From: a virus
Taxonomy: Duplodnaviria > Heunggongvirae > Uroviricota > Caudoviricetes
Length of the DNA: 64,000 nucleotides
IMG/VR virus record: IMGVR_UViG_2802429224_000004
Location: 31,285-95,284 of that record
Strand: one strand, 5' to 3'
The notes under the pieces are model-generated. The model saw nothing but the letters and a program-made list of their open reading frames with translations, did no database searches and had not been told where the DNA came from. Below, piece by piece: positions 36,467 to 40,015 of this stretch (the stretch's first letter is position 1; the number at the start of each line of letters is the position of its first letter). The position numbers were made by a program, and so were the translations under genes.

Positions 36467-36712
36467 TTGGCAGAACGTGTTGATGATGCAGAGCTGAGCA
36501 TGAATCAGTTAGAAGCTCTCAAAGACATGGCCATCGATAACATCAGAAAGCAGGCACAGGTCGTGAGCCAGGTATTTACAGGGAAGTGTCGTTACTGCAA
36601 TGAATCGATTGAATCAGGCATTTATTGTGACGCTGAATGTGCGCAATGGCACAGGGAAGAGCAGGCTGCAAAACAGCGTAAATATGGCATGCGACCGGCA
36701 GGATTTGACTGA
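36467..36712 (+). CDS. Small Cys-containing protein
   Basis: 81 aa; CRYC...C...C motif. Confidence 0.4.
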   Translation: MAERVDDAELSMNQLEALKDMAIDNIRKQAQVVSQVFTGKCRYCNESIESGIYCDAECAQWHREEQAAKQRKYGMRPAGFD

Positions 36713-36714
36713 TT

Positions 36715-37293
36715 ATGTTGCGCTTTACTGAGGAAGAGTTTCAGGCTTTTAGTGAGCGTCGAAATAAGGGGCGGTCCAGGCCAAAAACCAAAAAGGATCC
36801 ATTCTTATCGCTTGCGCCGGTAAAAGAAGTTTCTCCACATGCGAAGGCACTTGCAGCACTGGCAAAGAACCCAGACCTGCGCGACGGAAATTGCGAGCAC
36901 TTCGAGCAGGTTTTCATTTTTGATTACTTCGAACGCAAGCACCCTGACATCTATGAGCTGTTGCATGCAACGCCTAACGGAGGGAAACGTTCAAAAGCAA
37001 CCGCCGGGAAAATGAAGGCTGAAGGGCAGAAAAAAGGTTATCCGGACATGAGTCTCGATAAAGCATGCGGTATTTATCACGGCATGCGAATTGAGCTTAA
37101 AGAACCAAATGGTAAAGCCCCGACGAAAGAGCAGATCGCCTGGATGCGCAGGCTTAGAGAGGAAGGTTACTACGTCGTTCTTGCGTATGGTGCAGAACAA
37201 GCGATAACCGCCATCCTGGAATACATGAGCCTTAAAAAGGGTGAGGCTATTGAGCATGTATTGAACGGTGACAAGTGGTTGTACGCTGTGTGA
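36715..37293 (+). CDS. VRR-NUC-like nuclease
   Basis: 192 aa; KKGYPDM...IELKEPNGKAPTKEQIAWMRRL pattern. Confidence 0.45.
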   Translation: MLRFTEEEFQAFSERRNKGRSRPKTKKDPFLSLAPVKEVSPHAKALAALAKNPDLRDGNCEHFEQVFIFDYFERKHPDIYELLHATPNGGKRSKATAGKMKAEGQKKGYPDMSLDKACGIYHGMRIELKEPNGKAPTKEQIAWMRRLREEGYYVVLAYGAEQAITAILEYMSLKKGEAIEHVLNGDKWLYAV

Positions 37294-37456
37294 AATAATA
37301 AATTAATTAGTGCATGTGTGCTCTTTGATATAGCGCACATTAACATCGGGAGAATAATCGTGTCATCCAAGGCTAATTATGAATCGCTGGCATCGATCAT
37401 GCCGCGTAATGAACAGGAAGCAGATGCTGTAGTGGACCCGGTAATCGCTGAAATGA

Positions 37457-38119
37457 ATGCTCGCCTGGAGGCTGAATTTGCAGCTGAGAATGAACATACC
37501 ACCCAGGGCGACTAGGACTGTTTTTTGTGTCGGTAGCGGTCCGTCACTCACTCGTGAGGACTGTGCTGCTATAGAAAAAACTGGCTGTTCAATCATCGCG
37601 GTTAACAATTCCTGGCAGATGTTCGATGACATTTATGCCTTATACGCCGGTGATTTGTCATGGTGGAAGCAATACGGATCCACCATACCGGGAGGGAGAT
37701 TCCGCAAAGTGACAGCCAACCTGGCGGCGGCGAAATCATTTTCGTTGGAGTACAGGCGATATTGTGGACCGGCTGAAGGGGTTAATAGCGGCGCGCAGGC
37801 TATCAGTCTGGCGGCTGAATCAGGGGCTGAAGTAGTGGTATTAGTCGGCTATGACTGTTCTCTGCAAAACGGCCTTCATTGGCATGGAGCACACCCTCAA
37901 GCACTACGGAATCCAACGCAGGTGTCTATTTCAAAATGGCAACAGCAGTTCCTGGATACCCGCAAAAAACACGCAGATTTACATATTTTGAATGCAAGTA
38001 GGAGCAGTGCAATTCAATGTTTCCCAAGAATAAATTTAGAGGCAGTGATCGCGTTATTATCGTCGGCAGTGGCCCAAGCGCCGCAAACTTTGTTGCGCCG
38101 CGCGGAGTGCCGATTATAG
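37457..38119 (+). CDS. Rossmann-like GSGPS-motif protein, paralog A
   Basis: 220 aa; CVGSGPSL...IIAVNN. Confidence 0.4.
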   Translation: MLAWRLNLQLRMNIPPRATRTVFCVGSGPSLTREDCAAIEKTGCSIIAVNNSWQMFDDIYALYAGDLSWWKQYGSTIPGGRFRKVTANLAAAKSFSLEYRRYCGPAEGVNSGAQAISLAAESGAEVVVLVGYDCSLQNGLHWHGAHPQALRNPTQVSISKWQQQFLDTRKKHADLHILNASRSSAIQCFPRINLEAVIALLSSAVAQAPQTLLRRAECRL

Positions 38120-38643
38120 CGGTCAATGGGGCCATCGACTGGCTTAACCGCGCTTCTTATTTTTTCACACTTGATCCATCGCCAGACAATATGCGGCGCG
38201 TTGGTCGTGGCCGCCGTCGCCGTGGTGTTTGTTATTGCATGGCACTACCCGATGTTAAAGAACGTGAAGTCAGAGACGGCGTTCTGTGCTTCCGTCGTGT
38301 GGCTGAACGAGGCACGGAGCCAAAAAATACTAACTCTCCAGAGTGGTGGGCATGGCGCTGGTCCGCACATTTCGGCCTTTGCGAAGATGAGAATGAAATT
38401 GCCAGCGGCAATAGTGCATATGGTGCTCTGAACCTGGCTTTCCATATCGGATTCAAACATGTAGCCCTGGTGGGCGTTGACGCTACGCAAGAACCACGCG
38501 TTCACTCCGGCGGCACGCCAAAAAATCTAAGTCACCTGCCTTTGTTATTCCAGTCTGCGCGTGAACAGATTGACGTTGTTTCATGCGGAAAAATGGGAGG
38601 TATTCCGCAGATGACTCTTAAAGAATGGCTGAAGAATACATGA
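38017..38643 (+). CDS. Rossmann-like GSGPS-motif protein, paralog B
   Basis: 208 aa; IIVGSGPSA...IIAVNG; overlaps paralog A by about 100 nt in another frame. Confidence 0.4.
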
Positions 38644-39317
38644 TGGCACCAACAATTTATCACCGTATCGACGGTACCAAATACAGGAATATCTGGGTTG
38701 TTGGTGATCTGCATGGTTGCTACACCAGACTGATGTCCGAACTCCATCGTGTGGATTTTGACCCGGCGCAGGATTTGCTGATATCGGTCGGCGACCTTAT
38801 CGATCGCGGTACTGAAAATGTCGAATGTCTGGAACTATTGCAGATGCCCTGGTTCAGGGCAGTAATGGGGAACCATGAGCGGTTGATGCTCGATGCGTTA
38901 AGTCCTGATGGCAACGTGAATAACTGGCTAATGAATGGCGGACAATGGTTCTTCATGCTGGACACTGATCAGGAAATATTAGCCAGGACGCTGGTGGAGC
39001 TGGTAAAGCGTCTGCCCTATATCATTGAGTTGAACACTGGGCAAGAAACTATCGTTATAGCCCATGCCGACTATCCGGATAATGAATACCAATTCGGTAA
39101 GGAGGTGCCGCTTTTCAACGTTGTCTGGGCGCGCGAGCGTATCAGTGATTCGATGGATGATATTGGTGGCGAAATTTCGGGCGCAGATCGTTTTATCTTT
39201 GGTCACACTCCGGTGAAAATCCCGAAGACATTCTGGAATCAGCATTATATCGACACTGGTGCCGTATTTTGCGGAAACCTGACATTGATGAAAGTGAAAG
39301 GTGATGGTGCAGCATGA
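38625..39317 (+). CDS. ppp: Ser/Thr protein phosphatase (lambda-PP type)
   Basis: 230 aa; GDLHG...GDLIDRG...GNHE metallophosphatase motifs. Confidence 0.7.
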
Positions 39318-40015
39318 AGATTGCTTTAGTTCTTCGCTCTGGTGGTGACTATAACGCTTCCGATGTGCAGTGGCTGGTTAATCAACTGCCAAAAGGCTAT
39401 GAAATTATTTGCCTGACAGACCTGAAGCGTTTACATGTACCTGGCGTCAAAGTTGTCCCATTGATCAACCAGTGGCAAAAGTGCCGTGGCTGGTGGGCGA
39501 AAATCGAGTTGTTCCGACCGGATATAACCGATGATCTGTTCTATCTGGATTTGGACACGGTTATTGCCGGTGATATACGCCCAATCCTTGAGAATCCACC
39601 AACCAGCTTCACCATGCTTAGGGATTTTTACCATCCACAATATCGTGGTAGCGGTGCCCTGTGGATACCAAATAGTGTAAAAGCGCATATCTGGAGTTCA
39701 TTCTGGCAAGATCCGGAAGGTTGGATTTCTCGTTGTGTCACTACTGAGTGCTGGGGTGATCAGGGGTTCTTACGGAAGGTTATGGGCGATGATACACCAG
39801 CATTTCAGGATCTGTATCCGGGATGGTTTGTAAGTTACAAGGCCGATGTTGTGGAACCTGGTTCAAAATATGCAAGCGCGCGTTACTCCAGGGGGAATGG
39901 GGCATTACCAAAGGACTGCCGAATAATCTTTTTCCACGGCAAACCGCGACCTCGCGAAGTGTCAGAGGATTGGCTTCCCCTTATTAGCTCGTTTTTTGAG
40001 CTAGAATCAGAATAA
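39314..40015 (+). CDS. GT-A-like nucleotide-sugar transferase candidate (DXD motif)
   Basis: 233 aa; [13 protein letters not shown]. Confidence 0.4.

Follow-up and report, generated by a model that had tools for sequence, protein, structure and literature searches.

Bacteriophage P1 is among the phages most used in genetics, and some of its genes are still named for a "putative morphogenetic function" (pmg). What do such genes do where a run of them stands behind an operator of the C1 repressor? We addressed this question in a stretch of 64,000 nt, hereafter the window, which covers positions 31,285 to 95,284 of the IMG/VR virus record IMGVR_UViG_2802429224_000004 (Caudoviricetes). A sequence-only reading had taken the genes at 36467-40015 of the window as a nucleic acid or protein modification module rather than as morphogenesis genes. 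Our analysis shows that this segment is the pmgL-pmgQ region of a P1-type phage-plasmid, and that it is an accessory region composed of a mosaic of independent units rather than one module. The best overall explanation, which we hold to be probable, is that within this mosaic PmgO, PmgP, and PmgQ form a cassette for building a glycan, most likely on a protein acceptor.

The segment corresponds exactly to P1 pmgL-pmgM-pmgN-pmgO-pmgP-ppp-pmgQ (NC_005856 / AF234172, 78602-82150). The 4.1 kb around it showed 98.2% nucleotide identity to P1 over the full length; the alignment to P1 78435-82535 was collinear, with 73 substitutions in 4101 nt and no insertions or deletions, and P7, SJ46, RCS47, and further P1-like phage-plasmids matched nearly as well as P1. 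The gene set, gene order, and operators are shared with P1 pmgL-pmgQ and with the P7 equivalents hdmB, hdmC, and hdmD. PmgL and PmgO are identical to the P1 proteins, PmgM, PmgN, PmgP, Ppp, and PmgQ carry two to five amino acid changes each, and no functional difference from the P1 genes is expected despite the substitutions. RefSeq labels already attached to the P1 locus are VRR-NUC, "alpha-2,3-sialyltransferase", metallophosphoesterase, and glycosyltransferase. A literature search found no functional study for pmgL-pmgQ, hdmB-D, phage DUF115, or "norphogenetic protein". None of the seven proteins matched a defense or counter-defense model of PADLOC, and six of the seven had no match in NCBIfam.

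PmgQ, described earlier as a DXD-motif, GT-A-like transferase, belongs to GT8, a family of retaining glycosyltransferases. A profile of 49 homologues matched AgtA (PDB 6mw5) with an expectation value (E) of 3e-8 and glycogenin with E 7e-5, and PmgQ aligned with E. coli WaaJ at 77% probability (E 2e-5), with both the DxD motif and the C-terminal HxxGxxKPW-type motif aligned. Among the 49 homologues, D79-L80-D81 and a GDQ motif are invariant, and an FHGxPxP motif (H208, G209, P211, P213) is nearly so. The AlphaFold2 model had a predicted local distance difference test (pLDDT) score of 95.3, and all of the top 50 Foldseek matches to it were GT8 or GT8-domain proteins (E 3e-8 to 1e-6, template modeling score 0.5-0.6), including AgtA, glycogenin, WbbM, LgtC, GlyE, XXYLT1, and LARGE1. 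The single PmgQ sequence, in contrast to the profile, hit no Pfam family even at E up to 10, and Glyco_transf_8 was not reached. PmgQ thus shares with AgtA, glycogenin, LgtC, GlyE, and WaaJ/WaaO the GT-A fold, the DLD at 79-81, and a C-terminal HG.P.P motif comparable to HxxGxxKPW, whereas it differs from the solved GT8 members in being compact, in its low identity to them (10-17%), and in having Maf-like partners.

These partners are PmgO and PmgP, which the sequence-only reading had regarded as two paralogous, Rossmann-like proteins with a GSGPS motif. Pairwise BLASTP aligned the GSGPS stretch only (E 0.003); profile-profile comparison with hhalign, made without the fusion protein described below in the alignment, extended over the full length at 98% probability and E 1.4e-13. 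Judged by these sequence comparisons, the two are true paralogues. Both have the core fold of the Maf/GT42/MptE-like group. Maf and the Cst-II sialyltransferases ranked top in the sequence-profile search, and the motifs common to all of them were aligned, namely GxGPS and SG..A..LG...LxGxD followed by a His. The residues P29, S30, N50, D66, S111, G131, and D133 are invariant in both paralogues. Single-sequence PDB searches with PmgO and PmgP returned noise only. Compared with Maf (PDB 5mu5) and the GT42 enzymes Cst-I and Cst-II, PmgO and PmgP each comprise one domain of about 200 aa and nothing more, where the Maf chain has 632-666 residues; they form a conserved paralogous pair, unlike Maf and GT42; and their similarity to these enzymes stays below threshold (E 0.07 against the PDB, and under the Pfam gathering score). 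No genes of a CMP (cytidine monophosphate)-nonulosonate pathway were seen adjoining PmgO and PmgP. PmgP is the most conserved member of the triad, with at least 52% identity across 31 diverse aligned homologues, and an exhaustive profile search placed its family at 559 clusters at 50% identity.

The evidence that these three proteins belong together comes from their distribution. A scan for the PmgP family with one genome per species gave 18 loci, which were then searched by tblastn with all P1 proteins, and a second scan of viral contigs, anchored on a distant PmgP member, gave about 25 further diverse loci with the same outcome. In the tblastn searches, PmgO, PmgP, and PmgQ occurred together in Enterobacteriaceae, Zhongshania, Commensalibacter, Brevundimonas, and Sinomicrobium (Bacteroidota), and the Methylophilaceae and Longimicrobiales loci had PmgP and PmgQ, with pmgO undetected. 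The same searches found ppp, pmgL, pmgM, and pmgN in P1-like elements only and in none of the other triad loci. Local hidden Markov model searches and Pfam, applied to multi-domain members of the PmgP family, identified fusions of the types O-P (P0051), P-Q (P0302, P0368), Q-P (P0383), Q-P-class I methyltransferase (P0350), and methyltransferase-P (P0382); all of them join O, P, Q, and methyltransferases only. Because the three proteins are co-inherited across phyla and fused in several orders, we assign them to one pathway, often with a methyltransferase, and regard co-inheritance and fusion as strong evidence for this assignment. The distant P1-like elements L110, L117, L119, L120, and L128 carry PmgL-PmgM-PmgO-PmgP-PmgQ-PmgR/PmgS without ppp (PmgL was undetected in L119 and L120). 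Since ppp is missing where pmgP abuts pmgQ in these elements, we interpret it as having been inserted into the triad within the P1/P7 lineage. The mosaic would accordingly consist of PmgL with PmgM as one unit, PmgN as a second, PmgO with PmgP and PmgQ as a third, and Ppp as a fourth that was inserted into the third.

Methyltransferases that use S-adenosylmethionine (SAM), of class I, Methyltransf_24, or FkbM type, were repeatedly interleaved with the triad or fused to PmgP and PmgQ homologues. P1 has no methyltransferase at the position where one is interleaved with the triad elsewhere.

The genomic surroundings of the triad suggest on what the cassette acts. In about 10 of the roughly 20 loci examined outside P1, the cassette lies within head or packaging gene clusters. 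The loci L096 and L113 have the order large terminase, portal, prohead protease, HK97-type major capsid protein, PmgO-PmgP-methyltransferase-PmgQ, and gp6-like head-tail connector; in L096, where alone the small terminase was scanned for, this gene precedes that of the large terminase. Similar arrangements were a portal, an unassigned open reading frame (ORF) of 286 aa, and a capsid gene before O-P-Q (L108); capsid and connector before P-Q (L104); and large terminase and portal before O-P-x-Q (L106, L109). The cassette follows the large terminase in L097 and precedes a connector in L098, and it lies downstream of a Mu F-like head protein in L101 and L111 and of portal or S49 protease genes in L118 and L121. 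Among 70 pooled neighboring ORFs, the commonest families were portal, class I methyltransferase, Clp/prohead protease, head completion, and HK97 gp10-like proteins. The head-gene context is frequent, not universal. All named source organisms of the family are diderm bacteria.

A different setting was seen in five chromosomes of the Pseudescherichia group (L090-L094). In these, PmgO is encoded directly downstream of an inverse autotransporter of 1178 aa (IAT_beta and seven Big_1 domains), with PmgP divergent from the autotransporter gene and PmgQ just beyond (e.g., L090:3357-9248). More Big_1 and RCC1-repeat proteins are encoded around these loci, and no phage genes were seen nearby. The arrangement suggests glycosylation of the adhesin by the same cassette. 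Just after its PmgQ homologue, the podovirus-like contig L003, carrier of the O-P fusion, encodes a further protein, of 192 aa and with a WVDCDG motif (L003:11757-12335), which looks like another small transferase of GT-A type.

We propose that, in lytic growth, the three enzymes would assemble a short glycan within the cytoplasm. That they constitute a glycan-building cassette is, in our judgment, very probable. PmgO and PmgP are probably a working pair, because they are fused in one relative, and the analogy with Maf and GT42 suggests that what they would transfer is an acidic sugar activated by CMP. In E. coli K-12 the donor would likely be CMP-3-deoxy-D-manno-oct-2-ulosonate (CMP-Kdo), because it is, to our knowledge, the only CMP-activated acidic sugar donor of this strain and because the named hosts are diderms throughout; Kdo as the sugar transferred nevertheless stays a tentative proposal, based on analogy, which we think has a rather small chance of being right. 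From its family membership, PmgQ would add an alpha-linked hexose from a uridine diphosphate (UDP)-sugar, and in the relatives the SAM methyltransferase would methylate the glycan. Models of PmgO, PmgP, and PmgQ are all compact, soluble-looking domains, and the acceptor should for this reason be reachable in the cytoplasm. Because the cassette usually lies among head genes and flanks immunoglobulin (Ig)-repeat adhesins, the acceptor is most likely a protein, which in phages would be a head or other virion protein and in the chromosomal loci the Ig-repeat adhesin. For a protein, and probably a virion protein, as acceptor, we put the chances at even or slightly below. Published genetic and proteomic data on P1 are more in keeping with modifying enzymes than with structural parts: of 29 single-gene knockouts, 24 had no plaque or antirestriction defect (PMC9024508), all seven genes from pmgL to pmgQ were non-essential by knockout (PMC10695390), and PmgC and PmgG were the only pmg proteins detected in P1 virions (PMC9024508, PMC10695390).

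A precedent exists in mycobacteriophages. Work by Freeman and coworkers from 2023 is said to have found the glycosyltransferases of these phages dispensable for growth in culture. Phage-encoded glycosyltransferases are described, as cited in PMC11256854, as proposed or shown to glycosylate the major capsid protein of Che8 and its relatives. The triad resembles this system in that it adjoins capsid and portal genes in many phages, and in many relatives the glycosyltransferase genes are embedded in the head-gene cluster itself. The triad-bearing phages differ from mycobacteriophages in the envelope type of their hosts.

Several points weigh against a glycan-building cassette with a protein acceptor. 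P1 proteins are not known to carry a glycan, and the term "glycos" is absent from the published P1 proteome paper. The acceptor is read from gene neighborhood only, and this neighborhood varies: the cassette adjoins lysis genes in L003, L004, and L100, lies amid nucleotide-metabolism genes in L102, and in P1 itself stands between baseplate gene 26 and pmgR/pmgS, not beside the capsid gene. The donor sugar is a conjecture, and the link to WaaZ, the KdoIII transferase of the E. coli K-12 lipopolysaccharide (LPS) core, is faint: a shared NS[GA]...LG...LxGxD motif aligns to WaaZ 171-198, and hhalign gave 17% probability and, for this single comparison, E 0.0014 over 28 columns, which is not significant. 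The family GT8 also holds LPS outer-core transferases, which fits an action on LPS. Against the Pfam family PF01973 (MptE-like), PmgO scored 23.4 and PmgP 20.9 bits, under the cut-off of 34.6, which was passed by the relatives P0051 (44.6 bits) and P0338 (44.1 bits).

The question of whether the triad modifies LPS instead was weighed together with two other accounts of the locus. If PmgO and PmgP were MptE/thiamine-pyrophosphokinase-like kinases or nucleotide-binding proteins, PmgQ alone would transfer sugar; this is quite improbable, as the sequence profile ranks Maf and the Cst-II sialyltransferases first with both motifs aligned, and the steady partnership and fusion with a GT8 enzyme and methyltransferases look like a glycan pathway. 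An action on LPS would take place in lytic growth, on the cytoplasmic side of the inner membrane, with an extra Kdo added in the manner of WaaZ and an alpha-hexose in the manner of WaaO/WaaJ; the LPS-core receptor would be masked or truncated, which would spare superinfecting or newly released P1 particles a futile adsorption to infected cells and debris. The LPS core is where P1 adsorbs, and this account could draw on the membership of PmgQ in GT8, its alignment with WaaJ and the presence of LgtC and WbbM among its fold matches, the faint precomputed match of the O-P fusion P0051 to WaaZ_KDO_III (PF27901), the motif aligned to WaaZ 171-198, the exclusively diderm named hosts, the C1-controlled sigma-70 promoters, which would permit early expression, and the three loci that adjoin a lysis cassette. 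We consider it the strongest of the rival accounts, but nevertheless unlikely. The head and packaging clusters in which about half of the examined loci lie are normally transcribed late, too late to remodel LPS already exported; the WaaZ similarity is non-significant; the models and secondary-structure summaries have no obvious membrane-anchoring segment; the chromosomal loci that flank adhesins point to proteins; and the knockouts had no plaque phenotype, although such a phenotype might be subtle (PMC9024508). The earlier proposal of a single modification module held up in part. The genes encode enzymes and a regulator-like protein, not virion parts, and although they match P1 pmg genes, none of them has an established structural role, the name "putative morphogenetic function" being a positional guess only. 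That all of them, nuclease, phosphatase, and transferases, serve a common substrate such as phage DNA is very improbable. The genes do stand side by side on one strand and follow C1 operators, and in L102 the triad lies amid genes for a DNA polymerase, a ribonucleotide reductase, a dCMP deaminase, and a MazG-like protein, but PmgL, PmgM, PmgN, and Ppp are absent from every triad locus outside P1, Ppp is missing even from distant P1-like elements, and all fusions are limited to O, P, Q, and methyltransferases. Nothing points to nucleic acid modification: common restriction enzymes digest P1 DNA in the normal way, and methylation is the only kind of modification known for it; none of the genes seen beside the triad encodes an enzyme for base hydroxymethylation or another DNA hypermodification; and the knockouts showed no change in antirestriction (PMC9024508).

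The sequence-only reading had also noted that pmgO and pmgP overlap by about 100 nt, as they do, and that the overlap could hide a frameshift. A programmed -1 frameshift that yields a PmgO-PmgP fusion, or a sequencing or pseudogene frameshift that split a single original gene, could appeal to several features: pmgP stands in the -1 frame in seven of seven unfused loci, the P1 overlap contains two heptamers of the form X XXY YYZ in the pmgO frame (TTTCCCA at 38020 and AAATTTA at 38032), the 12 nt around AAATTTA, also the heptamer of the Rous sarcoma virus gag-pol slip site, are identical in all 82 P1-like contigs checked, and a natural in-frame O-P fusion exists. We regard such a frameshift as most improbable. 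The heptamers are missing in L004, L097, and L101 and differ in L088 and L096; TTTCCC simply follows from conserved Cys-Phe-Pro codons, and by our calculation the chance of such a heptamer in 34 codons is about 13%. The RNA downstream is ordinary (z 0.15; 98 of 200 shuffled versions folded as well or better). A shift at either heptamer would remove the confidently modeled C-terminal helix of PmgO (194-207) and the nearly invariant E195, both of which the natural fusion retains. The gene pmgP has its own ATG at 38017, with AGGAG 12 nt upstream, and in a Citrobacter rodentium prophage, whose PmgO is 41% identical, the PmgP ATG likewise falls within the Cys-Phe codons of PmgO. Overlap lengths among relatives vary (103, 94, 49, 13, and 7 nt) and are all 1 mod 3, as expected if an ancestral ATGA-type overlap had been extended. 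Both frames encode complete domains, and the conserved cores barely overlap: the unconserved PmgO tail (203-220, low pLDDT) sits over the conserved GSGPS region of PmgP, and the unconserved PmgP leader (1-11) over the conserved CFPRINLE stretch of PmgO. We conclude that the overlap serves the translational coupling of two partner enzymes and hides no frameshift.

The locus sequence and the family-level RefSeq labels were already known. New are the recognition of PmgO-PmgP-PmgQ as a conserved, sometimes fused cassette, the assignment of PmgQ to GT8 and of PmgO and PmgP to a Maf-like group, the interpretation of ppp as an insertion into the cassette, and the head-gene and adhesin contexts. Carried to its furthest extent, glycan building by the triad would mean that P1 and hundreds of phages of diderm bacteria attach to their heads, or to other proteins of the virion, a short O-glycan that is in many cases methylated, made by a Maf-like pair using CMP-Kdo or another CMP-ulosonic acid together with a GT8 enzyme, and that some enterobacteria have borrowed the cassette for giant Ig-repeat inverse-autotransporter adhesins. 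This extended proposal is speculative, and we would expect it to fail in one part or another. If it were true, virion glycosylation would be a widespread trait of Gram-negative phages, and Kdo would, as far as we know, be found linked to protein where it had never been before. Should glycosylation of virions or adhesins be confirmed, sugar-bearing phage particles, which have up to now been documented for mycobacteriophages, would be a feature of Gram-negative phages too; this would matter for phage stability and host range and, in phage therapy, for recognition by the immune system. An action on LPS would instead amount to a receptor-masking system of a kind undescribed for P1. Under either reading, the labels "norphogenetic protein" and "alpha-2,3-sialyltransferase" could be replaced by more accurate ones. 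The former product name is a typing error that goes back to the P1 note for pmgM ("putative norphogenetic function"), and it now stands on PmgO and PmgP homologues of at least seven genera in NCBI records.

The control elements of the locus, together with its genes, are collected in the table. The C1 operator-like site proposed to precede the run is indeed present. It is a 17-bp site with 2 mismatches to the asymmetric consensus ATTGCTCTAATAAATTT, overlaps a promoter-like site, lies 58 nt upstream of the pmgL start, and is identical in sequence to the operator annotated in P1 as Op82/O26. The window contains 15 C1 operator-like sites, compared with 0.42 expected by chance. Op83/Oppp is weaker; its operator status comes from the P1 annotation, its sequence is unchanged from P1, and it precedes pmgN-pmgQ. 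The P1 annotation has Op82 overlapping predicted sigma-70 promoters and adjoining the late promoter LPpmgL, whose -22 box is common to the divergent promoter LP26. The sigma-70 promoter-like site that we found in the window has a -10 element overlapping Op82, and P1 annotates P2pmgL at the same place. A scan for terminators and promoters found no convincing terminators within the segment and fewer promoter-like sites than in shuffled sequences. The operators would define at least two repressor-controlled units, pmgL-pmgM and pmgN-pmgQ. Following the P1 annotation, C1 would silence these units at the two operators in the lysogen, and they would be expressed from the sigma-70 promoters and LPpmgL during lytic growth.

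Table. Genes and control elements of the pmgL-pmgQ region, in window coordinates, and methyltransferases linked to the triad in other loci.
Feature	Position	Strand	Description
LPpmgL	36360-36378	+	Late promoter, Lpa-dependent; carried over from the P1 annotation (P1 78495-78513) by collinear offset
Sigma-70 promoter-like site (P1 P2pmgL)	36370-36397	+	TTGAAA-16-GAAAAT, 9/12 matches
C1 operator Op82/O26	36393-36409	-	ATTGCACTAATAATTTT, 2 mismatches to the consensus ATTGCTCTAATAAATTT
pmgL	36467-36712	+	81-aa DksA/TraR-like zinc-finger protein; phrog_54, E 1.6e-12
pmgM	36715-37293	+	VRR-NUC (PD-(D/E)xK) nuclease
C1 operator Op83/Oppp	37300-37316	-	Reverse complement CATGCACTAATTAATTT, 4 mismatches; between pmgM and pmgN
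pmgN	37360-37515	+	51-aa acidic protein; phrog_2350 (function-unknown family)
pmgO	37457-38119	+	Putative glycosyltransferase, Maf/GT42-like (MptE-like superfamily)
pmgO/pmgP overlap	38017-38119	+	103 nt, pmgP in the -1 frame relative to pmgO
pmgP	38017-38643	+	Second putative Maf/GT42-like glycosyltransferase, PmgO paralogue
ppp	38625-39317	+	Lambda-type PPP-family Ser/Thr phosphatase, between pmgP and pmgQ
pmgQ	39314-40015	+	Predicted retaining GT-A glycosyltransferase of family GT8, 233 aa
C1 operator Op86a	40017-40033	+	Start of the next unit, pmgR-pmgS
C1 operator Op86b	40066-40082	-	Start of the next unit, pmgR-pmgS
Triad-linked methyltransferases	P0350, P0382, L096:8570-9139, L102:8646-9272, L103:4467-5159 and 6349-7956		

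The remaining four genes stand outside the cassette, and two of them, pmgL and pmgN, had been omitted from the sequence-only reading. PmgL is by sequence similarity a regulator-like protein; it had no match in Pfam, NCBIfam, or the PDB, where the single-sequence search gave noise. The VRR-NUC-like nuclease recognized earlier is PmgM, which matched the solved phage VRR-NUC 4qbl over residues 77-179 (E 8e-17) and contains the catalytic motif P110-D111...E127-L-K129, as read from the translation. It also matched phrog_5702, a Holliday junction resolvase family (E 5.8e-27), and its score for the Pfam family VRR_NUC (PF08774), 21.2 bits, was marginally under the cut-off of 23.8. From these similarities, PmgM is probably a structure-specific nuclease or junction resolvase. 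Ppp had been called a lambda-type Ser/Thr phosphatase and proved to be a full-length homologue of lambda phosphatase (1g5b, E 7e-94, residues 11-229). It passed the cut-off of the Pfam family Metallophos (PF00149) with 60.3 against 21.5 bits, its translation contains GDLHG, GDLIDRG, and GNHE, where GDxHG, GDxxDRG, and GNHE are expected, and it stayed under the NCBIfam equivalog cut-offs for PrpA/PrpB (278 against 326). Ppp and PmgM recall the nin region of lambda, with Ppp comparable to NinI (lambda phosphatase) and PmgM, a candidate phage-type junction nuclease, to structure-specific nucleases such as Rap/NinG, and both Ppp and PmgM are dispensable. In contrast to the nin accessory genes, Ppp and PmgM are under C1 operators in a myovirus phage-plasmid, and PmgM belongs to VRR-NUC rather than to the Rap/NinG family.

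The gene pmgN was found in close P1 relatives only and overlaps the annotated start of pmgO by 59 nt. The 16 N-terminal residues from this annotated start had pLDDT below 50, the leader is unconserved among homologues, and many PmgO homologues begin just a few residues ahead of the GSGPS strand. The true start of PmgO may therefore be the ATG at 37490 (Met12), in which case pmgN and pmgO overlap by 26 nt instead. Published data on pmgN conflict: knockdown by CRISPR interference indicated an essential gene (efficiency of plating 1.4e-2), whereas the knockout was non-essential (PMC10695390). The knockdown may have acted, by polarity or off target, on the start of pmgO, which lies within pmgN, or on the promoter region at Op83.

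With respect to the window as a whole, its map is circularly shifted relative to that of P1, such that the final 3 kb correspond to P1 res/mat. The sim/pmgC region at 2800-5600 has a low G+C content (0.36-0.38) and is covered by other P1-like phages over 27-41% only. Compared with P1, this region is variable or has been replaced.

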